Below are positions 1-24,752 of a DNA stretch of 64,000 nt, piece after piece (position 1 is the stretch's first letter; the number at the start of each line of letters is the position of its first letter). The stretch is taken from the NCBI GenBank assembly GCA_963575745.1, contig CAUYUJ010000132.1:1-64000 (forward strand), read 5' to 3'. The notes beneath the pieces are model-generated. The model did no database searches. It worked only from the letters and a program-made list of their open reading frames with translations, and had not been told where the DNA came from. A program made the translations under genes and the position numbers. The stretch comes from Prorocentrum cordatum (lineage: Eukaryota).

Positions 1-15
1 GATGATGATGATGAA

Positions 16-174
<159 letters not shown>

Positions 175-496
175 CACTTAGGGAATATTGATTGAAACAC
201 GGGAGAGCGCCGCAACTTTTGCCCTTCGTATTTCTTCGGCTCAGCACTTCTTTTGAGCGCCCATCCTCGGCCGGCAGCGCATGGACTATGTGCTGCAGCC
301 CAGGTATTCCGCGCGCGGCTCGCTGGTGTCAGCTCGCCGTCCTGTTGTGACCCACCGAGGGCATTCCACTACTCGTAAAATGCCTGTTCGCAGACTTCCG
401 AAAAACACACGTTCGCCTCGTTGTCATGGATCGTAAATCCCCCGTGGTGGATCCAGGCCGTTTGCGAGTAGTTACTCTGCGAGCAGTGGAGCGCGC

Positions 497-3400
497 TTGT
501 CGAGTGGCTGCACGCCCGCACACTCCGACGACGGGGTCCTCGAGCTGCTCCGCGAGCAGCTCCAGCGGTGCGGCCCGGAGAGGCTGCCTGCTTGCCCGCT
601 GGCGCCGCCGTCACCGCCAGAGGCGGCTTACCTGGGGGCTCGTGTGGCCCCTCGCCGCCGCCGTCGCGGCCGGCGGCCTCGCGGGGGGAAAGGCTTGTCG
701 CCCTGCGGCTCGCCAGCTGCGCTCGGCGGCTGCGCGGCTCGCAGCCGCTGGTGTCGCGGGTGGTGGCCGAGGGGGCGTGGGCCCCCCCAGCCAGCAGGGC
801 CGCGGGCGCGGAACCAGGCGCTGGCGCTCGAGGGGCGCCCAGGGCTTGACGTGGCCTCCGACGACCTCGCAGGCGAGGCTCGCGCGGCGCTGACTGCTGT
901 GCGGGCGCGCGCGGCTGCGCGTTGATGGCGCTCGCTCCTGGGGTATGGCTGTTCGTGGCTTGCGACAACCCAGGGGTGCAGGACCCGCTCTACCACGAAA
1001 AACTTATCACCGCCGTGGGAGTCAATGCGCAGTACTGCGTCTTCACTACTGACGGCGACCACTACCTCGAGTAGGTTTCCTCAGCTAATGCCGATTCTCT
1101 CGATATCCGATCGTTGGCTGGACCTGGAGCCGGGCCCGTCGGGATCAACGCCAATCGGATCTACAGATTCCGCCGCGTGCCCACGCTCGCGGAGCGTGCC
1201 CAGTACTTCAGGGACGGTACCCTCATCGCAGTGGTGGCCGTGCCGCCCGCCGCCGCAGCCGCTGCGCCCGCCGACGCGCCGCGGCCTGGCGCTGCGGCCC
1301 TGGCAGCTCTCGAGCGTGTGTGGGTGGTCGCCGAAGATGCAGCAGGGCGGGTGCGAGGTAATATCATCGCGGACATGGGGGGCGCTCCTACCATCTTCGG
1401 GGACATGGCACTTGTCGAGTTGGCCCAGGGTACATCGCGGACGAGGTCGCGAGATATACCAACGACGACCTTCGCATCTTTCCGGTCGCCTTCAACATTC
1501 GAGGCAACCGTCGCCGCCCCCTTGCCGATGCCGATGGCTTCGGGCCGGAGGGTCTGCGGCGTTGGCGCGGCGGCAGCATCGAACCTCAGCCATCGCGACG
1601 CGTGGTTTCGCACTTGCCGTCCGGCGACAGGTCGGTGCCCGCGCATCGCGTTCTGTGTGTCCTGCTGCACGTGATGCTGGTCGTCGACCAGCTCAACGCG
1701 AGCTGCTTGCAATCGGGCGAGCTTATCGCCAGGAGGCCCCAGCTGATTGAGGGCGCTCGCCGAGCCAGCCCGTTTTCATCAGACTACGGATCGCCGGACC
1801 ACTACGTGGGGCGTGCTTATCGGGCAGGAGGTGTCACTGACGCGCCTGGCCTCAGGCGCTACGTCGCGGACAGGCCAAGGGCGAGGTCGAGGTGGCCAAG
1901 GGGCAGCGGAAGGCTCGCGAGGGGCCCCGCCTGCTCCGAGGCAGCTCCAGCCCCGCGGGCCGAGGAGAGGGGGGGCGGGCGCCGAGGGCGCCGCCCGGGG
2001 CTGGGCGACTTCGATTCCGCGGGGGGGGGGGCTGGCCGACCCCTCACGCGTGTCCCAGGCCCTGCTCACGGTGTGGTTGTGCGCCTGGGCGCCAGTGTTT
2101 GACGGGCGCCAGCGAGAATTGCCCCCCTGGCCGCTGGTCGAGGGGCGCCTTGCCGTTGCCGCGAGTCCCCTGGGCCGGGGGCGCGCGCTGGCCAGCGTCC
2201 GATGGGGGGGGCTGCGCCGTCGATCAGGCAGTCAGCGCCTTGGGGGAGCTCTACCGTGCACCTGAGGGCTCAGCGAGCACTGCGCTTGGTGGCCACCACG
2301 AAGCGCATCGCCCGCTTCGCCTCGCCGCTCGACTGAGCCCCCGTGTAGCGATGTATACTTTTCCCAAGCAGCCGCGGGGGGGCTGCTGAGGTTCCGCTCC
2401 TCCTGCGATGAGAGTGCCGCGTGCCGGGTGCGGGCCTGCGACCGGTCGCTCGTCGATTTCCCGAGGCCAAGCTGGGCGCCGCCAGCCCTCGCTGACGTGG
2501 CTGGCCATGTCGGGCGCGAGACGTTGAAGGATTGGATGAATCCTGCGATGCCGGGCCGGGGCGAGTGGGGCCAGGTGGTCGAGAGTTCGCCTCCAGTGAC
2601 GCGCGTGGAGCCGCGCGAAGGGCCCCTCGCTCTACCGGGCCTTCGTCGGGGGCGCGCGCGCCGCGGGGGCCGTCGGCTTCGCCGCGGGGCCCGCGGACTG
2701 AGCGCCCCCCTTCGCTGGCAAGAAATCAGGTCAGCTGCGGGTTTGGCTCTCGACGGGAGAGCCCCGAATCGGCGGTTCCTAAAGCGCCCCCCCTCCTGGC
2801 CGCGGGGGCGGGGGCGTCGTTGGGCAGGCCGGGGCTTGAGGGGCCAGGCGTGCGCGCCCTCCAGGAGACGCCTGGCGCTCGCGAGGAGCTCTTCGTCAGT
2901 GGCCTCAGCGCGAGGAACTGCATCTATGCGCTGGGGAATTATCTCCAGCTGATGCCCTTCTACAGCTTGCCCGACGTCCTGGCCGAGTTCACCGAGGGCT
3001 TCGGGGGGCCGCTGGTCGGGGCGCTCCAGCGCTCGACTGGGTCTGGTCGACGCTGAGAGTGGCCTCCATTGGCTGGGGCTGGGCCTTCTGCCTGGCCGAA
3101 CGTGTTGCCTCGCGGCGAGTCCAGGTCGCCTTCGGCGTCGGGCCGTCCGTGCTGCTCCGCGACCGCGGCCTGGCCCCCGACATCTGACGGGGGGCTCGCC
3201 GTTCTTGGCTACTGCCATTGCGTCGGCGCGGCTTCGACCTCCGGGAGTGACTGGCCAGCTGCGTCGCAAGATCGAGGTGCAGCTCGTCGAGGACGGCGTC
3301 GAGGTCCACGGGGCCACTGTCGCGTCCACTTCCGCCGTCATGTTCGGCAGGGAGATCGATGGCAGTCCTGAGACGGCGCAGCTACCTCCCCAAAGGCCTG

Positions 3401-4010
3401 CCCGACTGGGGGCAGCTAGCTGACGGGTGGTGCGAGGGGCGTCCGAGAGCGTCGGCCCATCGGATCGAGATCGTCGTCGGGCACTGCGTCGACGCCGCCG
3501 TGCTGAACCCTTGCCTCGTGTCCGTGTGCTGCAGGTGCTGCGTCTTCGCCGCCGCCGCCGTCTGCAGCCCTGCCGAGCACTGGGCTGCTGTGGCGTGGGT
3601 GCTCTCGATCGGTCTTTTGCAGGTTGCTCTTCGCGTCCGCCTGGGACGTGCGGGGGCCGCCCTGCAGCGCCGCTGGCGCGTGCGACTCGGGCCCGACTGG
3701 AGCGGCGGTGGTCGCTGCAGAGATGTCCTGCGAGGTCGCGTGGAAGAGATGGTGCAGGTCGGGGGGCGCTCGCGCTCCCGGGGTCGTGGCGGCGTCCTGG
3801 CTCCCCGCCTCTCCGCCGTCGGCCCTCCCGGTGTTTTTTCTCGGGCCCGAGGGCCGCCCCCCCTTCGAAAGTTCAGATGGGGGGGGCGAGGGCGCCTTGG
3901 TCCCCAATCCTTCTTTCGAGGAAGTGCCCGAGGAGCGGGCGGCGTGGGCCTCGTGGCAGACGTGCGTGGCCCTGCCGTTGGCGGGGGTTGAGCGGATCGC
4001 CGCCCGCTCT
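497..4010 (+). mobile_element. Degenerate retrotransposon, probably DIRS/tyrosine-recombinase class: ORF1-like region, RT and RNase H remnants, 3' truncated; copy A
   Basis: Frameshifted motifs occur in RT/RNase H order: FAGKKSGQLR (2711) then LDGRAPNRRF; LFVSGLSARNCIY (motif A remnant); LRVASIGWGWAFCLAE (3053, LPMGxxW-like); GYCHCVG (3207, decayed YxD[DN]); IEIVVGH; ACDSGPTG (3678, RNase H DAS-like). The upstream ORF from ATG 925 has an in-frame TAG at 1072 and later reads DQLNASCLQSGELIARR. No recombinase is visible. Confidence 0.68.
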
Positions 4011-5204
4011 GCGTGGATCTTTCGAGAAAGGGTCCTCGGCGTCTGATTTTTTCCGATGTGTATCATCGTTCGCCGCAGGCAGGGGTGCGAGTTTCGTTGT
4101 GTTCACCTCCTGCGGGAGGGTGGCGTTCCTGTCCGCCTCCTCGGGCTCAGCTTTTCTGCGCCGCTGGGCGCGTTCTGAGAGGGGTCGTGCCGGGGCGGGG
4201 TCGCGCCTCTGGTGAGCTGCTGCCGGCGAGGAGCCCAGCCGTCCGACCGGGCTCGGCCGCGGCCCCGCCGAGGCGTGGCCGCCGGGCCACGGCGCCGCCG
4301 AGGCCCTGGGGGCGGCGTTCGGGCGGGGCGCAGGGCCGAGGTCGGGGGCCGCCGCTGTCGCGGCCTTCTGGAGGCCAGCCGGCTCGATCAGCAAGGCCAT
4401 CAGGGGCGACTGCGACAGGGGGCTGAGCGAGTTCCAGACATGTGCGTCGAAGGGGTCGCTTGAGTTGTCCAGGTTGGCCCGTGCCGACGCGGCGTTGGCC
4501 GCGTGCGCCGACGAGCTCAGTGCGGCACCGCTTTCAGAAGAATGGCGGGGGCCCTGGCCGTCGACGTGGGTGTCCTCAGAACTCGTCACGTGCGAGCCAT
4601 GCTCGAGGAATGCCTGCGGATCCGCCTCGTGCACGCTCGCTGACCGTCCTCGCGAAGAGGTCCGGGTCGAGGTGCCTCGGGTATGGTTTTGGCCGGATCC
4701 TCCCAGATGTATTGATTCAGCGTCTGTCGTTCAGAGTGCTACCAGGTCGCCCAGTGACACAGTCCATTCCTTCTTCAGAAGTGGGATAGGATGCCCGTCT
4801 ACGAGCCCGAGGCATTAATCTGTCAGATTCCTGCCCGAGGGTGCCCAGGAGTTCTGGCCTCCCATGGGCGGGCCCCCGCGTCGACGCTCTGGCGCGCCAT
4901 GCATGGCGCGTGCGGCCCGTCGCGTAAAGGGGTTCTCATATCATGATGCAGCTTTATCGGATATTCGTCGAATCGCGGGGGAGTGCCGCAACCCTTGCTC
5001 TTGACAGTTCTCGAGTTCCTTCCTTCCCCCCCCCCGCCTTCCCCGGTGGAGCTGTCTGCGGGCGCGGGCCTCTGATCTTTCGGCCCCTTGCCCGAGGTCG
5101 CCCAATAATTCTGGCCTCTCAGCAAGGCCCCCCCCGCTCGACGCTCTGGCGCTGCATGCGTGACTGTGCAGCCTGGCGCGGAAAGAATGCTTTCTATTCT
5201 GTTG

Positions 5205-6463
<1,259 letters not shown>

Positions 6464-6584
6464 GCGCATCTGATTTGCAAAATGACGAGGACGATTCCGA
6501 GTACGACTGCAACCGTCGCATGCTAGATCTGCCGCTACCCCCGAAATGCCACGAGGAGAGAATACGGGGAACCACAGGCGGACG

Positions 6585-7570
6585 AGGAAGATGAGGAAGA
6601 GGAGAAGGAGGAGGAGGAGGAGGAGGAGGAGAGGAGAAGGAGGAGGAGGAGGAGGAGGAGGAGGGAGGGAGGAGGAGGAGGAGGAGGAGGAGGAGGAGGA
6701 GGAGGAGGAGGAGGAGGAGGAGGAGGAGGAGGAGGAGGAGGAGGAGGAGGAGGAGGGGAGAGGAGGAGGAGGAGGGAGGAGGAGGAGGAGGAGGAGGAGG
6801 AGGAGGAGGGAGGAGGAGGAGGAGGGGAGGAGGAGGAAGAGGAGGAGGAGGAGGAGGAGGAGGAGGAGGAGGAGGAGGAGGAGGAGGAGAGGAGGAGGAG
6901 GAGGAGGAGGAGGAGGAGGAGGTGAGGAGGAGGAGGAGGAGGAGGAGGAGGAGGAGGAGGAGGAGGAGGATGGAGGAGGAGGAGGAGGAGGCGGAGGAGG
7001 AGGCGGAGGAGGAGGAGGAGGAGGAGGAGGAGGGCGGGGGAGGGGGAGGAGGGGGGGAGGAGGAGGAGGAGGAGGAGGAGGAGGAGGAGGAGGAGGAGGA
7101 GGAGGAGGAGGAGGAGGGGAGGAGGAGGAGGGAGGAGGAGGAGGAGGAGGAGGAGGAGGAGGAGGGAGGAGGAGGAGGAGGAGGAGGAGGAGGAGGAGGA
7201 GGAGGAAGGAGGAGGAGGGGAGGAGGAGGAGGAGGAGGAGGAGGAGGAGGAGGAGGGAGGAGGAGGAGGAGGAGGAGGAGGGTAGGAGGAGGAGGAGGAG
7301 GAGGAGGAGGAGGAGGAGGAGGAGGAGGAGGAGGAGGAGGAGGAGGAGGAGGAGGAGCAGGGGAGGAGGAGGCGGAGGAGGAGGAGGAGGAGGAGGAGTA
7401 GGAGGAGGAGGACGAGGGAGATGATGAGGAGGAGGAGGAGGAGGAAGAGAAACAAGAGGAGGAGGATGAGGAGGAAGAACAAGAAGAGGAGGAGGAGGAG
7501 GGAAAGGAGGAGGAGGACAAGGAGGAGGAGGAGGAGGACGAGGAGGAGGAGGAGGAGGAGGAGGAGGAAT
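6585..7570. repeat. (GAG)n purine tract; also ~24962-25708, ~42957-43631, 59580-59725, 61722-62040, and (CCT)n at 57437-57690
   Basis: Directly visible. Confidence 0.95.
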
Positions 7571-7914
7571 AGGACCAGTGTACAGCCAAGAGGCATCAAC
7601 GATGGTGGAATCGACCCTTCCTCTCAATTCCCTCTTCATAAGCCCCTTACAGCGTTTCATTTCCATTGAAGGAACTGCCTCGTTGGAAGGCAACCGTTTG
7701 AAGATCTTGATACATGTCAAAACATTGTTCTTGGGGCTTCCACGCCACGGATCAACTTGACTGCTGCGTCGTGACGATCTGGAATCGTGCCAGAAGGCCA
7801 TTTTTGGAAGTTCGACACCGCGAGCCAACATTACTGTTGCACCCGCATAGTCCTGAATCCTTTTGAAACACCATGTCTGGTACGTTGATCTCGGGAACCC
7901 GTGACACTCTTGCA

Positions 7915-8425
7915 AATTAAAAAACGAATATGCGCGGCGCTGAGGCGAGAACCACATTTTGAAAAGGCACCGGCCTCAATCCGTGCAGCTCGTGAGACAT
8001 TTATCAAACGAATTTGCGCGGCGATAAGGCGAGAAATATTTGTTGAAAACGACTCGCCCCCAATCCGTGAATTTGTTATTGCAATGTTTAAAACGAATGT
8101 GCGCGGCGCCAAGACTAGAGCCACGTTTTGAAAACGCGGCGCTAAGGCGAGAGCCACATTTTGAAAACCACCCGCCCTCAATCCGTGAAGCTCTTGCAAT
8201 TTTTCAAACGAATGTTCGCGGCGCTAAGGCGAGAGCCGCATTTTGAAAACGAGCCGCCCTCATCCGTGAATCTCTAGTAAATGTTTAAAACGAATGTGGC
8301 GCTAAGGCGAGAGCCACATAAAAAACCACCCGCCTTCATTCCGTGGATCTCTTGTGCGAAGTTTTGCAACGAATGTGCGCGGCGCTAAAGGGAGAGCCAC
8401 ATGTTGAAAGCGACCCGCCCTCATC
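7915..8425. repeat. Degenerate ~82-bp minisatellite, about 6 units, upstream of the gene; also ~26045-26555 and ~43970-44480
   Basis: AAACGAATGTGCGCGGCGCTAAGGCGAGAGCCACATTTTGAAAA..CCGCCCTCAATCCGTGAA recurs at about 7922, 8006, 8091, 8206, 8288 and 8368. A related fragment lies at ~54510-54610. Confidence 0.85.
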
Positions 8426-8707
8426 AGCGAAACAGTTGCCATGTTTTAATCTTCAGAGTGATACATGTAATAAATGGTAAGTCTCAGGCGAATCGCCGCC
8501 TGGCCCGCCCTAAAAACGGCGCCAGGAGAGGGGGGGCTCCTCCTCCTCCTCCTCGTTCTCTTCTTGCGCCTCCTCCTCCTCCTCCTTCTCCTCCTTTGGG
8601 TCCTTAGAAGTCTGGCAGAAGCCCTGTTAGACAGCACTTGGCATTCTACCACGCCTCCAAGGTGCCACTGGGCTCGGAGGCGGATTCCCACAATCAGTGT
8701 CAGCTCA

Positions 8708-10285
8708 ATGGGACCGTCCCTCCAGATCTTCGTCGTTCTTGTTCTGGGTGTGCGATCAGAGGTGCTGAATTTTGCCCCAGAGATGGACGGATCGTTCGAA
8801 TTCAACGATGCTGTAACGTCTGACATCGGTACTGCCATGATGACCACAAACGACGGTATCGTGTGCTATTCCGACTGGGCAAATCCCCCTGGAGAGAGAG
8901 CAGTGTGCAACGCTTTCGACGCCTCCACTGGTGACGTTGGCCCAGACTGCAACTTGACCGCTTATCTCGTGAAGGGCCAGAGGTTCACGGTCACCCGCTT
9001 CTCCGACGAGCTGGCCATAGTATGCTTCACGGCCTTCGGAGAGTACGAGATCGGGGGGCCGTCGTATTGCCACAAGCTGACCCTGAACACGGCCGACATG
9101 ACTCTGACCGCCGGACCAGGCCTGGTAGTCAAGCCGGAGGCGACATTCATGTATTATCTGACCATCGCCAGCTTCACTGAGACCTTCGGGGTGGTGTGCT
9201 ACCAGGACACCTCGGACGTGTTCGAACCGAAGGAGAGGAAAGCCAGGTGCAACGTCCTTGGCTTCGAATCTGGAAGTGACAGTCTCACTAAGAGCGAGGC
9301 TTTCGAGGCGGACTCAGTGGCGGTTGACGTTGTCGGTGTGTCGCTCACTAAGTTCTCAAGCTCGACGGGCGTTTTGTGTTTCACCGAGAAGACAGATGAA
9401 AGGGCATACTGCACGCTTTTGACTGTCAGTGACACGGACATCAGTGTGCCTGGCCCAAATGACGTTGCCATCTTCGAAGGTGTCCCTAGCATACTGGACA
9501 GGGCGCAGGTGTCCGTAGTCAGCTTGGACGAGACCACAGGACTGGTGTGCTACGTCGTCGGAGATGCATCTGCTGGCAACAGTGCCTCATACGAGATCAC
9601 GTGCACCCCCGTTGGCTTGGTCAATGGGACTGTGGTCACGGTTGGCGACGACATCGTGGTAGACAGCGACGCCACTTTCGACATGTCGGTCACCGCCATG
9701 TCCGAGACTGCCGCCATCGTGTGTTACCTGAAGGGTGACGAGAGGATCGGCACCTGCAAGGGGCTGGTCCTCAGCCACGGCAGGGAACTGAGCATGGGCG
9801 ACGCGAGGGACATCGCCGGCACCAGCGGGTTCAAAGCCTACAGTGACGAGAACATCCGGGTCTGCGACGACAACCCCTGCGTCGAGTTCGTCTCGCTCAC
9901 GCGCAGGAACGACGTCGACGCCATCGTGTGCTACGCGGGCATCGACGACAACCCCAACGGGCGATGCACGAAGCTCTTCGTGCCGGCGCCCACCACCACC
10001 GCCACCGCGACCACGACGAGCGCGACGAGCAGCACGACCCCGCACACCACTACGGAGTCCAGTACCACGACCGCCACGCAGACGAGCACGCTCAGCACCA
10101 CCACCACCGCCACCGAGACCACGTCCACGGGGACCAAGACTACAGTGACCACCACCCCGCACACCACCACGGAGACGACACCGACGTCGACGACCGCCAC
10201 CGAAGCGGAGGATTCCGCCGGGCGCGGCTCTTCCCTTGCCCCCCTGACGCTGCTTGCGGCCCTCGCGGCAGCAGCTGCACGGTGA
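8708..10285 (+). CDS. Predicted secreted, GPI-anchored surface protein (525 aa): signal peptide, 7 Cys-paired repeats (putative beta-propeller), Thr-rich stalk; copy A
   Basis: Uninterrupted 1578-bp ORF with normal amino-acid composition. N-terminus MGPSLQIFVVLVLGVRS. Seven repeats of [AG]-[IVL]-[VL]-C-[YF]-x(10-17)-C. About 70 aa of Thr-rich sequence, then a small-residue site and hydrophobic tail (EDSAGRGSSLAPLTLLAALAAAAAR). The ATG at 8708 is the start shared by all three copies. Confidence 0.9.
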   Translation: MGPSLQIFVVLVLGVRSEVLNFAPEMDGSFEFNDAVTSDIGTAMMTTNDGIVCYSDWANPPGERAVCNAFDASTGDVGPDCNLTAYLVKGQRFTVTRFSDELAIVCFTAFGEYEIGGPSYCHKLTLNTADMTLTAGPGLVVKPEATFMYYLTIASFTETFGVVCYQDTSDVFEPKERKARCNVLGFESGSDSLTKSEAFEADSVAVDVVGVSLTKFSSSTGVLCFTEKTDERAYCTLLTVSDTDISVPGPNDVAIFEGVPSILDRAQVSVVSLDETTGLVCYVVGDASAGNSASYEITCTPVGLVNGTVVTVGDDIVVDSDATFDMSVTAMSETAAIVCYLKGDERIGTCKGLVLSHGRELSMGDARDIAGTSGFKAYSDENIRVCDDNPCVEFVSLTRRNDVDAIVCYAGIDDNPNGRCTKLFVPAPTTTATATTTSATSSTTPHTTTESSTTTATQTSTLSTTTTATETTSTGTKTTVTTTPHTTTETTPTSTTATEAEDSAGRGSSLAPLTLLAALAAAAAR

Positions 10286-10917
10286 TCCCTCCGAGGGTAC
10301 CTGACGCGACAGCAGTGCTGCACATCTTCCTCCCTGTCGTGACGGCAGTGCAGTCCATCTTCTTAGCTCTGGCGGAGCGGGCGCAGGCAGCAAAAGACCC
10401 TGCGATCTCAAATGGTAATCATTTGCCTGCTCACCCAGAGACCGCGCAGAAGTTGCGGGCGAACCACAACCATCATGATCGCCATCACCACCATCATCGT
10501 CTCGAGCAAGAAGCAACGGCATACAGTAGTTAACCTTCGGAGGTCCACGCAGATTTCTTCGATCGGCGCTGGACACCCTTTCTGGCGCGATGAGCGCCAG
10601 GGGCGGCGCCAGAGGCGCCCCCACTGGTCCAGTGTCGACCTAAGAGATCCGCGAAGCCCTCCGACACGTCATGTTTTCAGACTTTGTTGTCCTTCTTCTA
10701 CTTCAGGCAAGACGCTCACATAAGGACCACTTTTGGGCTTCCCAAAGCCATAGGATTCCCGAGGGAATCCTAAAGAATTCCTGGAGTTGGGGAAATCCTG
10801 CGGACCAGGTTGGTGCTTCGCCGACCAGCACCCAGGCCAGAGCCTCTGCGCTCAGGAATTCCTTCGCAAATCCAGAGGACTTTTTCGGACGGTTGGCTCA
10901 CAATCATTGAATTTCAA

Positions 10918-11086
10918 TACAGTGGAGACCCATGCCAAGAAACACCCTCCTTGCCTCCACAGAGCCGGGTTTCGGTGGTTTGGCCATGGAAGGCGTGGCG
11001 TTCCCACACCAAACATCGATGGACGCCCTGGGGTCTCAGGGTTGGGTTTCTTGTAGAAGGTTTATTGTGGTCGGGCCCCCACTATA
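10918..11086. mobile_element. Tc1/mariner-type MITE (TA-CAGT ends); also 29064-29232 and 46988-47156
   Basis: Begins TACAGTGGAGACCCATGCCAAGAAAC and ends GGGCCCCCACTATA. Homologous to 11917-12094. Confidence 0.6.
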
Positions 11087-11308
11087 TGCTCTTGGCGGCT
11101 TCATGTCAAAACTGCTGTTAGAAAGATCTTTTTTAACCCTGACGTCGAGATCCGCGTGAGGGTTTTTGGTCTTCGGGCTGTTCCTCAGCTCTAGGCCGGC
11201 ACCTCTTCGGGGCAGACGGTCAGCCGTTGGCCAGAAACGGCCCCTCGTGCTCATCATAGCGCGCTGACTGTATCATCGCCACCACCATCAGAGTGCTCCT
11301 CTCGTCGC

Positions 11309-11505
11309 AGGCCTAGAGGTTGACACCAACACCAACATCGGCGGTGTGCCTCCACCGAGGGAAGAAGATCCCGATCTCGGTGATGGTGGTAATATTCTGG
11401 CTTCCAAGGTGGCCGAAATATTACCACCAACACCGAAATTTAGGATCATCTTCCCCCTGTGGAGGCAACCCCCTGTGTTGGTGTTGGTGCCCATTTCCAG
11501 GCCTC
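11309..11505. mobile_element. ~200-bp imperfect palindrome (MITE-like); also 29455-29651 and 47379-47575
   Basis: Arms of ~90 bp: AGGCCT..CACCAACACCAACA..GCCTCCAC..TGGTGGTAATATT versus AATATTACCACCA..GTGGAGGC..TGTTGGTGTTGGTG..AGGCCT. Confidence 0.75.
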
Positions 11506-11916
11506 GAATCTCGATACGATCGAACCGATTCGATATCGATTCCGGCCCGCCCGATCCGACTCGATTCCACACTCAGACGGTCCGATGTGGCCCGATGCTC
11601 GCATTGGAATCGTTGTGCATCCTGGCGCGGCCGACCCGATTCGATTCTGGCTCTCCTCCTCATCCTCCTCCTCCTCCTCCTCCGCCTCCTCCTCCTCCTC
11701 CGCCACCTCCTCTTTCCCGAGGCGGCCCGATTCGGTGAGCATTCCGATCCGATCTTGTTGACCGATTCGATGCCAACTGATCCTGCCATCGCCATCGTCA
11801 GCATCTCGGCTCGCGGATCTTCAAACCCCGGCCGCCTTCGCTCTTTCTTCACCGAGCGCGTTCCGCTATCCGCAAAGTGCCTGCTCGCAAACGCCAGACA
11901 AAGATACGTCTTCCTC

Positions 11917-12094
11917 TACAGTGGAGGCCCATGCCAAGAAACACCCTGCCTGCCTCCAGGGTGCCCTAGGTTTCTTTGGTTTCATTTGCTTTGCTATGGA
12001 AAGCGCGACGTGCCCACACCAGAAATCAAAAACGCCCTGGGGTCTCAGGGTTGGGTTTCTTGTGGAGGTTTCTTGTGGTTGGGCCCCTACTGTA
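11917..12094. mobile_element. Tc1/mariner-type MITE of the same family; also 30063-30240 and 47984-48161
   Basis: Imperfect TIRs of ~27 bp: TACAGTGGAGGCCCATGCCAAGAAAC ... GTTTCTTGTGGTTGGGCCCCTACTGTA, with TA at both ends. Confidence 0.68.
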
Positions 12095-12232
12095 TGTAAT
12101 GGATCGTAATGGATCGTAGATCCCACGCGGCGGATCCAGCCCCTTGACCAGTAGTGGCTTCGCGAGTACTGCTGGAAAGAGCTTGTCTACTGGAGCGGCC
12201 TTACGGTCGGTGCCGCCGGCCCCCCTGAACGA

Positions 12233-12312
<80 letters not shown>

Positions 12313-12974
12313 GCGACGGCGACGACGACGACGCGTCCCCCACACGCCGACAGGGTCGGCTGATTTCTGGCGCCCTCCAAGGGAGGAACAACCACCCGGA
12401 CCGGACAGTTGGCGTTTACGAAACGTCCCTGGGCGTTTACCAAACAGCCCTGCCTTGTTTGATTCCTTCTTTGGGCGTGTTTACTAAACGACTTCGCGTG
12501 TCGGGGTGGTTATTTTCAGGAGGGGGAAAACCACACAGACACAATTAATCGTCGATTCCCAAGAAAATATGGAAAAATATGGGAAGAGGGGGGGAAGACA
12601 AAAACCCTGAAATTATATGAAAATATGGGGAATCCTGTTATTTGTGTGGATTTGTTTTCCGACGGACCGTGCGGTGAGGTCTTGGGGGGGATTTCGAGGC
12701 CACCGCACGGTCTGTCGCCGCACCGCGTCGGGACTCCAGACAGGCAGGAAGCTGCTGATGCCCCCCCCCAGGGCGTGACGGGGACGTCGGCGGCGGGCGA
12801 GGGGTCTCAGGGGCATTTTGGGAGGCAGTTTTGAGGCCTCTTGGGGGCTAGGCTCTGCCTAGAAGGGTTCTTACTCTCTTAGCTTAAAGGGGCCGGGCAG
12901 TGTAATGCGCCCCAGGCGGTTCCCCCAGGATCCGCCCCGCGGTTCCCCCAGTTGCGTCCCATTAGTATAGCGTT

Positions 12975-13058
12975 GCTTATCTCATCTTAGCTTAGCTTAA
13001 TTCATCTTAGCTTAGCCTAGCTTCATCTTAGCTCAGGTTTATCTTAGCTTAGCTTACC
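12975..13058. repeat. (CTTAG)n degenerate pentamer tract; also 31121-31204
   Basis: CTTAGCTTAGCTTAATTCATCTTAGCTTAGCCTAG... Confidence 0.85.
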
Positions 13059-13062
13059 TTCA

Positions 13063-14260
13063 GTGCAAGCTCGTCAGTGCAAGCTCGTCAACGACTTCGT
13101 GCCGAACCATCCAGACCGGTGCTTCCAGCACCTCCGTGTTCGCGTTGACGACCACAACGAGCCCGTGTCCATCGTCAATTGCCATGCGCCCGCCTCGAAA
13201 AAACGAGGGTTGACAATGGAAGGGCGCAAGCACACCTTCCTTGCTTGCCACAATGCGTGTGCGGGGGATCGCTTCATCTGGGGCGGCGACTTCAGCACGG
13301 GGATCATTCAGCTCATCGCCCTGGTGCAGAGTATCGATGAAGGCTACACAGCCTGCCAAGTATCGATTGACTCCGGTGCTGCACAGCCTGGATCACTGCA
13401 GCTGGTCTTCTCTCACCCGTTGAGTTTCAAACACGGCGACCTCGCGATGACCCACGGCCTGCGCAGCGTTCAAACGAGCTCCGAAAATGGTGCGTTCTTC
13501 GACGGAGTGAGTGATGCTCATGACCTCGTTGTGGCCAGGGTGTTCCTGCCTCGAGACCTCGAGAGTGCGGCTGAGCCTTCGCCGGTTCTGCGAATCACCG
13601 ATGCGCGCCCTCCGCTGACGTGGGAAGCGACACGCCGCCCGCCGAGCAGCGCTGCGCAGCCTGCCACCTCCTCCAACGTGGTACGCAGGCCCGCCACGCC
13701 CCGTGTCAACGCCATCTTCGGCAGCGATGCCTCCGCCGACGCAGGAGGTGCTCGAGGAGATCGGCAGAGACTTCCTGTTCGTAGCCTCGTCCGACGGCCG
13801 CTTCGAGGCGGCAGCTGCTCCGCGCATCGCCGAGAAACTGGAGGAGTTCTTGCGGGTCGTCGAGGAGCAGCGTGCGAATCGCATGCGCCGCGCGCCTGGC
13901 CAGGACTCCGACCCCATCTTCACGCCTCGCCACATGAAAGAGATCCACAAGAAGTGGCTCAGCGACTATAAGTCGTGGATGAACACGGAAACGGTCCAGG
14001 AGTACGAGCGGTTGCGCAACGGGAGGTGCGGGCAGAAAGCGCACCAGCTCCGACGAAGCGCTTTCTCCGCGTAATTGTTCCAGATCATCGGCGACAAACA
14101 TATGTTGCTTTCCGCCATCTAACATCCAATCTGCAATGCTGCGCAGCCTGCAGACGCAATGTGGCGGTTCATGGGCGCGTGGGCGGAGGAGAAGTCGTCG
14201 ACTGACCACGACGAGAGGAACGCGACGGAGAGGGAGGACATCGGCGACGACGAGAACGAG
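13063..14260 (+). pseudogene. 5'-truncated endonuclease/exonuclease/phosphatase (EEP, APE-like) domain followed by an unknown domain; disrupted
   Basis: Motifs IVNCHAP, FIWGGDFST (GDFN-like), GDLA and SDAHDLVV (SDH-like). Frameshift near 13740 into QEVLEEIGRDFLF. In-frame TAA at 14072 and 14120 with protein-like sequence continuing beyond. No ATG start. Confidence 0.7.
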
Positions 14261-14844
14261 GGGCCGCACAAGCGCCGGCGCCGTGAGTGGGCGAGCGGCT
14301 AGCGCTTCGCAGCTCGCGGGTCGCGCCTCGCAGCCCGCAGCTCGCAGCCTCCAAAACCGCTCCAGGACGAACCGAAAAATTTAGCTTTTCGCCCCGAGAC
14401 GCCCCTGGGGGGCCCAGAGAGCCCCCCCCAAAGCCCCAAGAGGCACCCAAGAGGCGTCCCAAGAGACCACCAGGAAACATACATTTTCGCCATGCACGGT
14501 TGTTCGGTTTTCACAGCGTTGACGACGATCCAAGACGCCCCGGAGACCGCCTCAAGGCGGCCCAAGAGGCCCCCGAGGGTCCCCAACAAATATTCCAAAA
14601 ACGTCCCAAGACGGCCCAAGAGGCGCCCGAGATGGCCAAGTCGTGCGGTATTAGACCGGATACGGAGCATTTTCAAACGCGCCCGGTGAGCGAATGAAAC
14701 ACATGCGTGTGTGTGTGTGCGTGCTTGTGCGCAGGCGAAGCAAACAAAACGTTAAGCAATAGCAAAAACAGAACTAAAGCAACGACAACAGCAAACGCAA
14801 TAGCAAAAGCAAAGGCAAGGCAATGCAAATCAGAAGCGAAACCT

Positions 14845-15008
14845 ATGCGAAAGTGTAAGTGTAGATGTAAATGTAGGTGTAGGTGTAGATGTAGATGTAT
14901 ATGTAGGTGTAGATGTAGGTGTAGATGTGGGTCTCGCTGTTGATCTTGGTGTAGATGTATATGCAGGTGTAGATGTTGGTGTAGCTGCCGGTGTAGATGT
15001 AGATGTTG
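14845..15008. repeat. (GTAGAT/GTAGGT)n hexamer tract; also ~32991-33154
   Basis: Directly visible. Confidence 0.85.
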
Positions 15009-15992
15009 CTTTCCTAGATGCTCCAAATCCTAGGTAGGGTCGCACTGGGATAATTTATGAGAGAGATGGTGTGGGTTGGGGGGGGAGCATGGTTCCTGGT
15101 TGGCTGCCAGTCGCCTGGGGGAGGGGGTGTATATCAATAGGGAGCAGTGATGAACCCCTCCCCGAACACGGGCAAAATGGGGATTTGAAGAGGAGTTTCC
15201 TTAGACCACCTACGCCCAGAGGGCTGGTGGAATTCGCAGACATGCCTTGTTACTTCTACGCAGATCAGGGTCGTCTTCGATTGTGAGCTGATTCGGTGTT
15301 GCTCGCATGACTGCGAGCGATCTATAGAGTAGGCGCGGATTGAATCGAGTTGATCCTCCTATTCCTCCTCGTCCGCCTACTTGGATTCTTGGATCGAAGC
15401 TGTGTAAGACAGTCCGCTGGCTTTTGGATGCGGCGCGCTTGCCAGTCAGACAGTCAGTCAGCCAGCCAGCCAGCCAGTCAGTCAGCCGACGTCGCCACAG
15501 GTGGCCAAAGAGCGGGCGACGGGCGGGGCGGCACGCTTGTGGGACGCACGCATGTGGGACAGCTTTCGACCCTCGTCTCCCCGTGCCATGCGGGGCGATT
15601 CCCTCCTCCTGCGTCGCTGAGCCAGCGAGGCCGCCCCAGAAGAGGAGGTCAGACGGGGTCACCCCGCCCAGGCCCCGACAGTCGAAGAAGACACAACTGC
15701 ACAAGCAGAGACTTCTGGAGGTCGGTGCGGACTTATTGGATCTGCGCTGGCCCTCATCGGTGGCGCCACTGTCGCCACTCTGAGCGCGCTCGGCGCGCCA
15801 AAGAGGGGGGCCCAGCTCCGATCCAAGAAAACCGCGCTGACCCCCGACAGTTTATCTTTACGCTGTTTTTACCTAACAGCGAAGACTGATAGGTTTCTAG
15901 TGGGGTCAAAAGAGAGCATCTTGACGCCCCAGAGGGGGTCCGGGCAGGATCCGGGGAGAAGCCGCGGAAGTCGATTTAGGCAGACAGATACA

Positions 15993-16335
15993 CACTTCGT
16001 GGGCTTCGAGGTCCCAGAACTCCATTCCTGGGCATGATTTTGAATGCCCGGAGCCACCTGTAGGCCACTTCGTGTTCTTCGAATTCCCAGAACTCCATTA
16101 CCGGGCCACATTTTGAATGACCGGGGCCAACTGTAGGCCACTTCGTGGTCTTCGAGTTCCCAGAACTCCACTCCTGGGCATGATTTTGAATGCCCAGAGC
16201 CAACTGTAAGCCACCTTGTGGTTTTCGAGTTCCCAGAACTCCATTCTTGGGCATGATTTTGTGCCCGGAGCCACCTGTAGGTCACTTCGTGTTCTTCGAG
16301 TTCCCAGAATTCCATTCCCGGGCCACATTTTGAAT
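15993..16335. repeat. 73-bp minisatellite, about 4.7 units; also 34139-34481
   Basis: Units start CACTTCGTG at 15993, 16066, 16139, 16212 (variant) and 16283. Confidence 0.92.
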
Positions 16336-17160
16336 GCTGAAGCAGGCTGATGCTGAGGCTGAGGCAGGCTGAGGCTGAGGCCGAGGCTGAAGGCAGACTG
16401 AGGCTGAGGCTGGTGCAGGCTGAGGCTGAGGCTGAGGCAGGCTGAGGCTGAGGCTGAGGCAGGCTGATGCTGAGGCAGGCTGAGGCTGAGGCTGAGGCTG
16501 ATGCAGGCTGAGGCTGAGGCAGGCTGAGGCTGAGGCCGAGGCTGAAGGCAGACTGAGGCTGAGGCTGAAGCAGGCTGAGGCTGAGGCTGAGGCAGGCTGA
16601 GGCTGAGGCTGAGGCAGGCTGATGCTGAGGCAGGCTGAGGCTGAGGCTGAGGCTGAGGCAGGCAGGCTGAGGCTGAGGCAGGCTGAGGCTGAGGCCTGAG
16701 GCTGAAGGCTGAGGCTGAGGCTGAGGCAGGCTGAGGCTGAGGCTGAGGCAGGCTGATGCTGAGGCAGGCTGAGGCTGAGGCTGAGGCTGATGCAGGCTGA
16801 GGCTGAGGCAGGCTGAGGCTGAGGCTGAGGCTGAGGCTGAAGGCAGGCTGAGGCTGAGGCTGAGGCTGAGCATGCTGGCTGACTGAGGCTGAGGCAGGCT
16901 GGCTGAGGCTGAGGCAGGCTGATGCTGAGGCAGGCTGAGGCTGAGGCTGAGGCTGCAGGCTGAGGCTGAGGCAGGCTGAGGCTGAGGCTGAGGCTGAGGC
17001 TGAGGCTGAGGCTGATGCAGGCTTGGCTGAGGCAGGCTGAGGCTGAGGCCGAGGCTGAAGGCAGACTGAGGCTGAGGCTGAAGCAGGCTGAGGCTGAGGC
17101 TGAGGCAGGCTGAGGCTGAGGCAGGCTGAGGCTGAGGCTGAGGCAGGCTGAGGCTGAGGC
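16335..17160. repeat. (GCTGAG)n hexamer tract with GCAG interruptions; also ~34482-35220
   Basis: Directly visible. Length and arrangement differ between units B and C. Confidence 0.95.
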
Positions 17161-17230
17161 TGTGACTGCGACTGCCGGCCACTGCGACTGTCATCGCGAA
17201 TGCGACTACGACTGCGAGAACAGCAGAATT

Positions 17231-17940
17231 CTACAACTGGATTCTCATCTGAATCTTAAGGGGAATGCTTCCAGATATGCTCCTACACATCGCTGTTAGG
17301 TTGCTTTGCCGGGATAATTCTTCGTCTGCGCAACGTCCAACTGGGGACACTCTTGTGCGGCAGGTTCGCGTCGTATCGATGTGGTGGCGGCTTTGCCGCA
17401 GGCGTTCAAGGTTGAACGCCGCTAGTGGCCCAGAATCGGCCGATACTGAACGATCTGCCGGGTACCCTCTTGGGGTCGTCTCTGGCCGTTTTGGGTTCAC
17501 TGGCCGAGGGACAAGTTAGACGTTTATCCCCTGGATCGGCCAACATAAGCATTCCCCGAGTTAATGTTCTCCAGATTTTCGAAAGGGTTAAAAGGCTTGG
17601 GAACAAACCGCCGCGTGCTGATGATTCTGGGACTGGAGTATAATCCACCCAGTGCCTGCGACGCGGTGATTTATCTCATTGACCATGTCTGTGCAGGCTG
17701 AGCATTATTCATTGTTTGTCACGTACTGTATCTGTGTTTGCTCAAGTATTTTTGCATCGTGGTAGTTATCTTCGCCAGGAATATTTGGGATAGCCTCTAT
17801 CCAGGCGCCTGTGGCGAGTCCCGCCGCTGTGCCAGCGGAAAGCTTTGCACGGCGACTTTTCGGGCCCCGCCGAACAATTTCCTTACATGTGGCACTTGTC
17901 GCCCTTGTGAAAAAAGAGGCTGAGGAAAATGAGAACAAGG
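17231..17940 (-). mobile_element. Possible heavily decayed non-LTR (LINE) reverse transcriptase fragment; second copy at 35274-35983
   Basis: Minus-strand peptides in the expected order weakly recall the N-terminal part of LINE RTs: AKLSAGTAAGL (KAPGxDG region), PESSARGGLFPSLLTLSKIW (PK..RPIxLL..K.W region) and AAFNLE. No YxDD seen. Confidence 0.3.
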
Positions 17941-17944
17941 ACTG

Positions 17945-18742
<798 letters not shown>

Positions 18743-19064
18743 CACTTAGGGAATATTGATTGAAACACGGGAGAGCGCCGCAACTTTTGCCCTCCGTATT
18801 TCTTCGGCTCAGCACTTCTTTTGAGCGCCCATCCTCGGCCGGCAGCGCATGGACTATGTGCTGCAGCCCAGGTATTCCGCGCGCGGCTCGCTGGTGTCAG
18901 CTCGCCGTCCTGTTGTGACCCACCGAGGGCGTTCCACTACTCGTAAAATGCCTGTTCGCAGACTTCCGAAAAACACACGTTCGCCTCGTTGTCATGGATC
19001 GTAAATCCCCCGTGGTGGATCCAGGCCGTTTGCGAGTAGTTACTCTGCGAGCAGTGGAGCGCGC

Positions 19065-22000
19065 TTGTCGAGTGGCTGCACGCCCGCACACTCCGACGAC
19101 GGGGTCCTCGAGCTGCTCCGCGAGCAGCTCCAGCGGTGCGGCCCGGAGAGGCTGCCTGCTTGCCCGCTGGCGCCGCCGTCACCGCCAGAGGCGGCTTACC
19201 TGGGGGCTCGTGTGGCCCCTCGCTGCCGCCGTCGCGGCCGGCGGCCTCGCGGGGGGAAAGGCTTGTCGCCCTGCAGCTCGCCAGCTGCGCTCGGCGGCTG
19301 CGTGGCTCGCAGCCGCTGGTGTCGCGGGTGGTGGCCGAGGGGGCGTGGGCCCCCCCAGCCAGCAGGGCCGCGGGCGCGGAACCAGGCGCTGGCGCTCGAG
19401 GGGCGCCCAGGGCTTGACGTGGCCTCCGACGACCTCGCAGGCGAGGCTCGCGCGGCGCTGACTGCTGTGCGGGCGCGCGCGGCTGCGCGTTGATGGCGCT
19501 CGCTCCTGGGGTATGGCTGTTCGTGGCTTGCGACAACCCAGGGGTGAAGGACCCGCTCTACCACGAAAAACTTATCACCGCCGTGGGAGTCAATGCGCAG
19601 TACTGCGTCTTCACTACTGACGGCGACCACTACCTCGAGTAGGTTTCCTCAGCTAATGCCGATTCTCTCGATATCCGATCGTTGGCTGGACCTGGAGCCG
19701 GGCCCGTCGGGATCAACGCCAATCGGATCTACAGATTCCGCCGCGTGCCCACGCTCGCGGAGCGTGCCCAGTACTTCAGGGACGGTGCCCTCATCGCAGT
19801 GGTGGCCGTGCCGCCCGCCGCCGCAGCCGCTGCGCCCGCCGACGCGCCGCGGCCTGGCGCTGCGGCCCTGGCAGCTCTCGAGCGTGTGTGGGTGGTCGCC
19901 GAAGATGCAGCAGGGCGGGTGCGAGGTAATATCATCGCGGACATGGGGGGCGCTCCCACCATCTTCGGGGACATGGCACTTGTCGAGTTGGCCCAGGGTA
20001 CATCGCGGACGAGGTCGCGAGATATGCCAACGACGACCTTCGCATCTTCCCGGTCGCCTTCAACATTCGAGGCAACCGTCGCCGCCCCCTTGCCGATGCC
20101 GATGGCTTCGGGCCGGAGGGTCTGCGGCGTTGGCGCGGCGGCAGCATCGAACCTCAACCATCGCGACGCGTGGTTTCGCACTTGCCGTCCGGCGACAGGT
20201 CGGTGCCCGCGCATCGCGTTCTGTGTGTCCTGCTGCACGTGATGCTGGTCGTCGACCAGCTCAACGCGAGCTGCTTGCAATCGGGCGAGCTTATCGCCAG
20301 GAGGCCCCAGCTGATTGAGGGCGCTCGCCGAGCCAGCCCGTTTTCATCAGACTACGGATCGCCGGACCACTACGTGGGGCGTGCTTATCGGGCAGGAGGT
20401 GTCACTGACGCGCCTGGCCTCAGGCGCTACGTCGCGGACAGGCCAAGGGCGAGGTCGGGGTGGCCAAGGGGCAGCGGAAGGCTCGCGAGGGGCCCCGCCT
20501 GCTCCGAGGCAGCTCCAGCCCCGCGGGCCGAGGAGAGGGGGGGCGGGCGCCGAGGGCGCCGCCCGGGGCTGGGCGACTTCGATTCCGCGGAGGGGGGGCC
20601 TGGCCGACCCCTCGCGCGTGTCCCAGGCCCTGCTCACGGTGTGGTTGTGCGCCTGGGCGCCAGTGTTTGACGGGCGCCAGCGAGAATTGCCCCCCTGGCC
20701 GCTAGTCGAGGGGCGCCTCGCCGTTGCCGCGAGTCCCCTGGGCCGGGGGCGCGCGCTGGCCAGCGTCCGATGGGGGGGGCTGCGCCGTCGATCAGGCAGT
20801 CAGCGCCTTGGGGGAGCTCTACTGTGCACCTGAGGGCTCAGCGAGCACTGCGCTTGGTGGCCACCGCGAAGCGCATCGCCAGCTTCGCCTCGCCGCCCGA
20901 CTGAGCCCCCGTGCAGCGATGTATATTTTTTCCCAAGCAGCCGCGGGGGGCTGCTGAGGTTCCGCTCCTCCTGCGATGAGAGTGCCGCGTGCCGGGTGCG
21001 GGCCTGCGACCGGTCGCTCGTCGATTTCCCGAGGCCAAGCTGGGCGCCGCCAGCCCTCGCTGACGTGGCTGGCCATGTCGGGCGCGAGACGTTGAAGGAT
21101 TGGATGAATCTTGCGATGCCGGGCCAGGGCGAGTAGGGCCAGGTGGTCGAGAGTTCGCCTCCAGTGACGCGCATGGAGCCGCGCGAAGGGCTCCTCGCTC
21201 TACCGGGCCTTCGTCGGGGACGCGCGCGCCGCGGGGGCCATCGGCTCCGCCGCGGAGCCCGCGGACTGAGCGCCCCCCTTCGCCGGCAAGAAATCAGGTC
21301 AGCTGCGGGTTTGGCTCTCGACGGGAGAGCCCCGAATCGGCGGTTCCTAAAGCGCCCCCCCTCCTGGCCGCGGGGGCGGGGGCGTCGTTGGGCAGGCCGG
21401 GGCTTGAGGGGCCAGGCGTGCGCGCCTTCCAGGAGACGCCTGGCGCTCGCGAGGAGCTCTTCGTCAGTGGCCTCAGCGCGAGGAACTGCATCTATGCGCT
21501 GGGGAATTATCTCCAGCTGATGCCCTTCTACAGCTTGCCCGACGCCCTGGCCGAGTTCACCGAGGGCTTCGGGGGGCCGCTGGTCGGGGCGCTCCAGCCC
21601 TCGACTGGGTCTGGTCGACGCTGAGAGTGGCCTCCATTGGCTGGGGCTGGGCCTTCTGCCTGGCCGAACGTGTTGCCTCGCGGCGAGTCCAAGTCGCCTT
21701 CGGCGTCGGGCCGTCCGTGCTGCTCCGCGACCGCGGCCTGGCCCCCGACATCTGACGGGGGGCCCGCCGTTCTTGGCTATTGCCATTGCGTCGGCGCGGC
21801 TTCGACCTCTGGGAGTGACTGGCCAGCTGCGTCGCAAGATCGAGGTGCAGCTCGTCGAGGACGGCGTCGAGGTCCACGGGGCCACTGTCGCGTCCACTTC
21901 CGCCGTCATGTTCGGCAGGGAGATCGATGGCAGTCCTGAGACGGCGCAGCTACCTCCCCAAAAGCCTGCCCGACTGGGAGCAGCTAGCTGACGGTTGGTG

Positions 22001-24498: not shown

Positions 24499-24529
<31 letters not shown>

Positions 24530-24752
24530 CTGATGCTGATGATGATGGTGATGCTGATGATGCTGATGATGCGACTGTTGCGGAACATGGTGATGGTGAT
24601 GGTGATGATAATGATGACGATGGTGATGATGATGCTGCTGCTGAGGATGATGCTGATGCTGATGCTGATGCTGATGATGATGATGATGATGGTGATGATG
24701 GTGATGATGATGGTGATGATGCTGCTGCTGCTGCTACTGCTGATGATGATGC

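Follow-up and report, generated by a model that had tools for sequence, protein, structure and literature searches.

The DNA analysed here is a stretch of 64,000 nucleotides (nt) of the dinoflagellate Prorocentrum cordatum (contig CAUYUJ010000132.1, positions 1 to 64,000; hereafter the window), and its subject is a gene at 8708-10285 of the + strand, the first of three tandem copies, which encodes a protein of 525 amino acids (aa; P0001). With a probability of roughly 0.6, P0001 is read as a surface binding module of an unnamed dinoflagellate family, in which a beta-propeller head would be carried on a mucin-like stalk and held by a glycosylphosphatidylinositol (GPI) anchor. The propeller fold predicted for the head is a common one; what is new is the blade family, which Pfam, NCBIfam and the PDB do not cover and which is, unexpectedly, related to phage tail proteins. 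A preliminary description of the stretch had proposed the gene as the best candidate for an undescribed system, and a single gene for a probable surface protein was found instead.

Protein and family

The coding sequence (CDS) of copy 1 comprised 1578 nt (525 codons plus stop) with no internal stop. P0001 contained 17 Cys, 14 of them arranged as the pairs 53/67, 106/121, 164/181, 224/235, 281/299, 339/350 and 408/420, with a spacing of 53-69 residues from the first Cys of one blade to the first Cys of the next. All seven repeats with two spaced Cys that had been listed earlier were recovered in the sequence, and so was the extra C-x4-C insert before repeat 7 (C386/C391); the last Cys was a lone C81. 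Two N-x-S/T sequons were present.

A word-indexed protein search returned 64 relatives (E <= 0.001) of 93% to approximately 23% identity, most of them encoded on contigs whose length (1.6-2.1 kb) is that of transcripts. By sequence comparison, P0001 belongs to an unnamed but sizeable family and is not a one-off. In an alignment of 44 sequences (25-93% identity), to which the conservation values given below refer, 12 of the 14 paired Cys were invariant and the other two were at least 90% conserved, and the leader, the seven Cys-pair blades, the Thr stalk and the hydrophobic end were collinear across the family.

The only named relative among the 64 was P0017, a P. cordatum 'Secreted protein', which aligned collinearly with P0001 over 79% of the query (32% identity, E 8.7e-61). 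It likewise had a leader, seven Cys-pair blades, a Thr stalk with T-P-H-T-T-T-E and a hydrophobic end. P0017 is another paralogue or comes from another species, and the P0001 subfamily is distinguished by Cys81 and by the two-Cys insert that precedes blade 7. This relative and the style of the genome agree with a dinoflagellate origin of the window. No function is recorded for any member of this family.

The preliminary description had called the family unrecognised, which was borne out in that no curated family matched. In Pfam, hmmscan of P0001 at E <= 10 gave only PF21631 (A9CJY8-like_N; 20.2 bits against a cut-off of 27) and none of the named propeller repeat families (WD40, Kelch, FG-GAP, YVTN/lactonase, NHL, BNR and others). 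NCBIfam gave no match for P0001, the PDB held no sequence relative (best E of 0.33 with P0001; 0 matches at E <= 1 with the family profile), and the blade-only relatives P0075, P0076 and P0084 had 0 Pfam families at E <= 0.01. Scans of metagenome_contigs found no relative of P0001 and no match to a 24-nt stretch around the start codon, and literature searches did not turn up a description of the family. The term has to be narrowed, however, as there were at least 64 relatives and as the blade also occurs in phage tail proteins, in bacteria and in other protists.

Predicted fold and conservation of the head

AlphaFold2, run with an alignment of 44 sequences, returned a mean predicted local distance difference test (pLDDT) of 75.5 and a predicted template modelling score (pTM) of 0.74. 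Values of 80-96 predominated in the head (about residues 20-428), and pLDDT < 50 was confined to the leader (1-19) and to the stalk and tail (436-525). DSSP assigned 28 strands to the model, seven times A, B and C plus a short D, and the left-over N-terminal strand (25-33) completed blade 7, which is the usual ring closure of propellers. The head, with its seven Cys pairs (aa 20-428; 8765-9991, + strand), is predicted to form the seven-bladed beta-propeller that the repeats had suggested. The best Foldseek matches were all propellers. ESM Atlas had a model of its own (pTM 0.71) with neighbours at template modelling scores of 0.71-0.83, mostly phage clusters plus one Planctomycetota cluster, and the best matches in BFVD were phage and giant-virus proteins (E 4e-13; root-mean-square deviation of 3.3 over 415 columns). 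In the model the fold appears to be a generic seven-bladed propeller, without a preference for any one solved family.

The two Cys of each pair were placed on the consecutive strands B and C, one pair per blade as previously proposed, and by DSSP register they were exact cross-strand partners in four of the seven blades and 1-2 residues off in three. This placement would fit one disulfide stapling each B-C hairpin.

Solved propellers differed from P0001 in sequence and role. The CylK C-terminal domain (7ron), YncE (3vgz) and Sec12 (4h5i) had 8-10% identity, with no sequence-level relation found; they are an enzyme, a periplasmic protein and a cytosolic guanine nucleotide exchange factor, respectively, and a per-blade disulfide, a stalk and a GPI signal are not on record for them. 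The seven-bladed bacterial lectins PLL (5c9o) and BP39L (6gxr) scored no better than WD40 proteins and showed no sequence similarity to P0001.

Invariant or near-invariant head residues were limited to Cys, Y107, S217, G278, G364 and Y409. Mean column entropy was 1.55 in the B strands and 1.82 in the A-B turns, compared with 2.37 in the B-C loops (gap fraction 0.25) and 2.32 in the segments from C to the next A, which held 100 of the 175 insert columns. Conservation was restricted to scaffold residues (Cys pairs, B strand and A-B turn), which argues for binding rather than catalysis. One ESM Atlas neighbour cluster was labelled lactonase-like (PF10282 in 15% of its members), as might be expected if P0001 were a tethered extracellular enzyme, resembling a lactonase, lyase or alkylating enzyme and with catalysis in the central funnel. 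Such an enzyme is very improbable, since the head had no invariant or near-invariant His, Asp, Glu, Arg or Lys, no Pfam enzyme family matched at E <= 10, and non-enzymatic propellers scored within a few Z units. The Asp-box (S-x-D-x-G-x-T-W) and FRIP motifs of sialidases and trans-sialidases were also absent from P0001.

Blades in phage and bacterial proteins

A phmmer search over 1.84 billion representatives gave 93 matches at E <= 0.001. In distant relatives (28 matches scanned with Pfam) the blades followed other modules. BppU_N stood ahead of the blades in P0072 (phmmer E 1.1e-19), which is named a BppU family phage baseplate upper protein of Vallitalea longa, and Phage_fiber_2 stood ahead of them in P0080; other blade proteins carried PAN, cadherin-like, CBM_5_12, Laminin_G_3, TSP1, or papain plus lectin-like domains.

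A dinoflagellate-type profile (84 blades) aligned with a phage-type profile (18 blades) over 48 columns (hhalign 98.7%, E 1.6e-16). A hidden Markov model built only from the 18 blades of 4 phage and bacterial proteins found exactly 7 domains in P0001, which coincided with the seven blades (71.8 bits, E 2.3e-22). In the shuffle control (n = 200), the best sequence reached 10.2 bits with one domain, and 31 of the 200 had any match at E <= 10; the seven-repeat periodicity is far beyond chance. The two-strand motif with both Cys was present in phage and bacterial blade sequences as well. On these profile comparisons, the blade of P0001 is homologous to blades at the C-terminal ends of phage baseplate and tail-fibre proteins, and such blades are present also in bacteria and other protists. 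The sources named for the relatives were one eukaryote (P. cordatum, P0017) and one bacterium (V. longa, P0072). A direct search of P0001 against PHROGs gave no match, phrog_8802 included.

P0072, P0080 and phrog_8802 (of unknown function) resembled P0001 in having blades of approximately 55-60 aa with a hydrophobic-V-C-aromatic strand and a G-T-x-C strand, and P0072 and P0080 also, as read from their sequences, in having seven blades. In contrast to P0001, the phage proteins carried the propeller after a virion-attachment domain (BppU_N or fibre repeats) and had no signal peptide, stalk or anchor. Their blades were much more alike within one protein, and by a rough regular-expression count the second Cys was missing in 5 of 24 phage blades and both Cys in 1 of 24.

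The placement of homologous blades at the distal ends of phage host-recognition proteins and, in other proteins, beside PAN, CBM and cadherin-like modules argues for a binding head in P0001, and the link to baseplates and tail fibres provides a functional lead. Propellers occur in the host-recognition devices of phages SU10 and phi11, according to PMC9509320 and PMC4901313; no sequence link between those propellers and the P0001 family was found.

Leader, stalk and C-terminal end

The hydrophobic leader, the Thr-rich tract of about 70 aa, the D-S-A or S-A-G site and the hydrophobic end that had been described before were all present in the sequence, and their order around the head was conserved in the family. 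Residues 4-15 had a mean hydropathy of 2.57, and the maximum over 9-aa windows in residues 1-40 was 3.48; a hydrophobic N-terminal window (>= 1.47) was present in all 39 relatives starting with M. A signal peptide is predicted by rule for aa 1-17 (8708-8758, + strand), with likely cleavage after V-R-S (15-17). The residues at -3 and -1 of the S17 cut were small or neutral, which fits the signal-peptide rule. Plastid targeting through an F-A-P after the leader was considered and rejected, as the motif was not conserved in the family.

The Thr-rich stalk (aa 426-500; 9983-10207, + strand) comprised 75 residues with 42 Thr, 9 Ser, 8 Ala and 5 Pro (T, S and P together 56 of 75). With pLDDT < 50, it had the long, disordered, Ser/Thr/Pro-rich composition of mucins. 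The motif T-P-H-T-T-T-E occurred twice in it, at 10040-10060 (aa 445-451) and 10157-10177 (aa 484-490). It was kept even in paralogues of 25-30% identity, with H485 and the neighbouring Thr at least 90% conserved, and may be a site for a modifying enzyme, for example a glycosyl- or prolyl-modifying activity.

The C-terminus consisted of S503-A504-G505, a 7-residue spacer, a 12-residue hydrophobic run and a final R, with a mean hydropathy of 1.89 for the tail. This is the small-residue site, short polar spacer and terminal hydrophobic run of the GPI sequence rule, by which aa 503-525 (10214-10282, + strand) are a candidate GPI-attachment signal; PMC2289147 describes the rule as a C-terminal hydrophobic domain combined with a small residue where the anchor is attached. 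In 43 of the 44 relatives the sequence closed with a hydrophobic tail that had small residues ahead of it.

A C-terminal stretch that spans the membrane, or is cleaved or left on a secreted protein, is quite improbable as an alternative to a GPI anchor. The GPI call was made from sequence rules, the P. cordatum relative P0017 is labelled only as a 'Secreted protein', and the distant relative P0084 had a true transmembrane segment plus a basic tail at its C-terminus, all of which would suit that alternative. Against it, the hydrophobic run had only about 12-15 residues with a single residue behind it, and in most members a cluster of small residues lay 7-10 residues ahead, which is a GPI rather than a stop-transfer pattern. 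The transmembrane segment that stands in place of the tail in P0084 also argues for surface display.

Transcript and leader junction

Of the words sampled from 8400-10800, at least half were present in each of 20 runs from 10 studies (shares 0.69-0.74), and five of the 20 were on record as poly(A) RNA. Contigs of four runs (X1, X13, X14 and X2, from three studies) were compared with 8200-11000. They tiled from 8684, 8704 or 8730 to 10444 or 10466 with no joints and no indels, and the coding region is therefore uninterrupted in RNA. In copy 1 the mRNA body spans 8684-10466 (+ strand), with 24 nt of 5' untranslated region (UTR), the CDS and approximately 181 nt of 3' UTR. The poly(A) RNA contigs thus bear out the expression that was expected of the gene. 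No RNA contig of the four runs covered 8200-8683 or 10467-10916, an absence that proves nothing.

Base 9739 was T in X2, which is the copy 3 variant, and C in the other runs. A 101-nt RNA contig in X13 and X14 differed from the window at four places within 13 nt (9010-9022) and represents a second expressed allele or paralogue in those samples. A diverged 5' UTR was seen at 8704 in X14.

At 8684 the contigs left the genome, with loose 5' ends of 9 nt in X1 and 59 nt in X2 (two studies). A 30-nt consensus of the loose end matched 17769-17798 and 35812-35841 exactly (0 expected by chance). The corresponding 5' leader would lie at 17740-17798 (+ strand) ahead of copy 2, where the start at 17740 assumes that the 59-nt end is collinear with the genome, and at 35783-35841 (+ strand) ahead of copy 3; for copy 1 it would fall outside the window, to the left. 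Between leader and mRNA body were 9031 nt in copy 2 (17799-26829, + strand) and 8912 nt in copy 3 (35842-44753, + strand), an intron or an insertion that contained two triplet-repeat arrays and an 82/115-nt satellite. The gene had been described as intronless, which held for the coding region but not for the mRNA, whose leader is this far upstream. Taken together, the mRNA would be approximately 1.85 kb long, from a leader about 9 kb upstream to the end of the 3' UTR.

Leader and body contained no ATG before 8708, and an in-frame TAG was present upstream, which identifies 8708 as the start codon. A similar leader was seen, as a translated N-terminal extension, in the transcript behind P0003, a protein 86% identical to P0001; the resemblance of this extension to the leader indicates that the arrangement of leader and CDS is shared.

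The junction was exact to a 2-nt 'AT' present at both borders, and the three possible cuts gave AT..GG, TC..GA and CC..AT. Dinoflagellate introns often depart from GT-AG and have identical repeats of 2-9 bp at their borders, and one member of a dinoflagellate tandem array contains a 26-kb intron, as reported in PMC5032977; PMC7789003 describes non-canonical introns with short direct repeats as abundant in Amoebophrya. Compared with the introns in PMC5032977, the 2-nt repeat is at the minimum of the range, and the GG or AGG found there in every case is missing. A real 9-kb intron in the 5' UTR, bordered by an identical short repeat in place of GT-AG, is slightly better than an even chance.

The rival explanation is that an insertion of approximately 9 kb split the 5' UTR of the copies in the window, that these are not the expressed ones, and that the RNA came from other copies with contiguous leader and CDS. 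This is doubtful, although it would account for a junction that admits no GT/GC/GA..AG cut, for intervening DNA made up mostly of satellites and triplet repeats, and for the homologous leader that precedes the CDS in the P0003 transcript. Against it stand the non-GT-AG borders and the 26-kb length known for dinoflagellate introns and the direct repeats of Amoebophrya introns. In addition, the leader had the same place and orientation in both complete units, and both nucleotide variants of the array (C or T at 9739) were present in RNA-type contigs.

A Helitron-like insertion (the segment starting with TC, at A|T) was considered for the 9-kb segment and was unsupported, with only a 7-bp stem and a 17-nt loop present; Helitrons end in CTRR at the 3' side, which the 3' end of the segment does not fit. 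The 21-nt dinoflagellate spliced-leader motif had no site at <= 3 mismatches in the window. At 6 mismatches three look-alike sites were found, two of them at the same array position (approximately 1.4 expected by chance per window). Directly ahead of the leader, 17726-17746 and 35769-35789 (+ strand), both ending in GCTCAAG, matched the motif at 15 of 21 positions. This stretch might be a relict leader or a trans-splice acceptor, and it was not counted as evidence.

Proposed function

As a surface binding module, P0001 would work as follows. The precursor would enter the endoplasmic reticulum through a cleaved N-terminal signal peptide, and the head would fold into the seven-bladed propeller that is predicted with good confidence. 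The invariant Cys pairs on adjacent strands suggest that the B-C hairpin of each blade would be closed at its base by a disulfide. The 75-residue Thr-rich segment would, from its composition, be O-glycosylated and form a stiff stalk, and the C-terminal residues (approximately 23) would be exchanged for a GPI anchor at S-A-G, as the sequence rules suggest. The propeller would thus be held out from the plasma membrane and would act as a rigid binding module, not as an enzyme. By the usual convention for propellers, the variable Cys-bounded B-C loops and the segments to the next blade would lie on one face, which would be the ligand face. The ligand would most likely be presented on the surface of bacteria, prey, mates or hosts, as a glycan or as some other structure.

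Fungal Flo, Epa and Als adhesins and Trypanosoma cruzi trans-sialidases are multigene families that combine a signal peptide, a binding head, an O-glycosylated stalk and a GPI signal; the trans-sialidases have a six-bladed propeller, repeats and GPI. The predicted architecture of P0001 is the same overall, and P0001 likewise belongs to a multigene family, but its head is unrelated and its lineage is different. No PA14, Ig-like, sialidase or BNR match to P0001 was found in Pfam.

Alternatively, the protein could be a bulk coat or wall component, comparable in role to the GPI surface antigens of ciliates or the mucins of trypanosomatids, which would form a glycosylated protective layer with no specific ligand and whose loops would vary by drift or antigenic variation. 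The tandem gene and the many paralogues (64 matches) agree with a coat, as does the high word depth in poly(A) libraries, a depth that cannot rank genes. Stalk and anchor, including T-P-H-T-T-T-E, were moreover the best-conserved features outside the scaffold. A coat is nevertheless unlikely, because a rigid, disulfide-stapled head kept over 25-93% identity would be costly for a mere spacer, and because phage tail proteins carry the blade at their working tip, and other proteins beside PAN, CBM and cadherin-like modules. The present evidence does not sharply separate a coat from a binding module.

Several points weigh against P0001 as an anchored, expressed binding module. The signal-peptide and GPI calls both follow simple rules, and one of the 44 relatives, P0020, had no hydrophobic end. 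The strand names A, B and C, and hence the assignment of the variable loops to one face, were read from strand order only, and the receptor-binding role of the phage relatives is itself deduced from domain context. The RNA contigs show neither strand nor expression level and cannot prove that the copies of the window, rather than copies elsewhere, are transcribed. Finally, the junction between leader and mRNA body had no canonical splice sites.

A broader interpretation joins these results and is speculative, being rather unlikely as a whole. In it, the Cys-stapled blade would define an undescribed, cross-domain superfamily of receptor-binding propellers with no solved structure or curated model. 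The blade would have reached dinoflagellates and some other protists from bacteria or phages, or would be an ancient common possession, and these protists would have expanded it into GPI- or membrane-anchored receptors whose disulfide-bounded loops read bacterial, prey, mate or host surfaces. Production of the mRNA would further involve excision, from the 5' UTR, of a 9-kb intron with borders that lack GY..AG and have only the 2-nt repeat. If this were true, the molecules long sought as mediators of recognition in dinoflagellate feeding and symbiosis might be among these receptors.

To our knowledge, almost nothing is known of the proteins on the dinoflagellate plasma membrane, although prey capture, parasitism, coral symbiosis and the bacterial partnerships that accompany blooms all depend on recognition at the cell surface. 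The family would offer a concrete, expressed, multi-copy candidate with a clear predicted anatomy of propeller head, stalk and anchor. The repeat is widespread and at present missing from Pfam, NCBIfam and the PDB, and many proteins would be annotated at once by a family model together with a single structure. A leader 9 kb upstream would add a further documented case to the unsettled matter of how dinoflagellates define intron borders.

Tandem array and gene copies

The first 48.9 kb of the window was a tandem array with a unit of approximately 18 kb and repeat spacings of 18146-18568. Unit 1, with its left end cut by the window edge, extended over 1-18568, unit 2 over 18569-36560 (from self-BLAST and repeat spacing), and a truncated unit 3 over 36561-48912. 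In self-BLAST, 1-6292 matched 18569-24841 and 6826-18694 matched 24955-36738, both at 97.6%, and the longest self-matches ended at 48912, which is equivalent to position 12848 of unit 1 and is taken as the approximate end of the array.

Each unit contained one copy of the open reading frame (ORF), always on the + strand: copy 1 at 8708-10285, copy 2 at 26854-28431 and copy 3 at 44778-46355. A tblastn search of the whole window found no fourth copy beyond these three. At least three identical copies had been claimed, which applied to the proteins of all three and to the DNA of copies 1 and 2 only, copy 3 having a single synonymous C>T at CDS base 1032.

Between units 1 and 2, substitutions were 0 across unit-1 coordinates 8001-16000 and 14-23 per kb at 2001-5000, and a three-unit alignment gave the reverse pattern between units 2 and 3. 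The gene copies are not alone in their near-identity, as whole multi-kb blocks of the 18-kb units were identical in mosaic fashion. Such mosaic identity is what unequal exchange or conversion inside an array produces, and is the usual look of a dinoflagellate tandem array; it suggests recent exchange among members of the array or, alternatively, smoothing in the assembly. Dinoflagellates usually carry highly expressed genes as tandem copies, and the arrangement found here is that of a dinoflagellate nuclear gene in a tandem array.

In copy 1 only, the frame was open for 234 nt upstream of the start (8474-8707), giving an ORF of 603 aa, as a result of a (CTC)n length difference plus a 1-nt indel relative to copies 2 and 3. 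The 603-aa ORF is a quirk of copy 1, because in copies 2 and 3 the ORF opens with the ATG that corresponds to 8708, and the RNA contigs begin at 8684; its 8474-8683 part was outside RNA contig coverage.

Other features of the window

The window was GC-rich, mostly 55-70% in 2-kb bins. To the right of the array, 48913-64000 had no long match to the array units in self-BLAST, and its long ORFs had no Pfam match. Fifteen other long ORFs of the window had 0 Pfam families, and most of them are taken as chance ORFs in GC-rich or triplet-repeat DNA. Among these is an antisense ORF at 9587-10624, rich in Gly and Arg because it is read opposite the Thr codons.

The stop-to-stop ORFs at 13048-13971 and 31362-32117 (both + strand) contained N-C-H-A-P-A and W-G-G-D-F-S stretches, which may resemble the endonuclease domain of retrotransposons without long terminal repeats; the ATG-started part, 13216-13971, had no Pfam match. 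Downstream of the mRNA body, a piece of approximately 42 nt (10917-10959) matched several unrelated RNA contigs whose sequences on either side of it differed, and is probably a short dispersed element transcribed in other RNAs and not an exon of the propeller gene. A similar peptide, Y-S-G-x-P-C-Q-E-T-P, recurred in the ORFs at 10810-11121 and 11317-12099.

Just upstream of copy 1, the 82/115-nt satellite was present in 2-3.6 copies at 8017-8425. The triplet-repeat arrays were (TGA)n with approximately 396 copies at 5272-6463 and (AGG)n with approximately 331 copies at 6576-7568, with equivalents in units 2 and 3. They showed a GC skew of up to 0.68, gave rise to spurious ORFs with hundreds of homopolymeric codons on both strands, and were the most length-variable part of the array unit.

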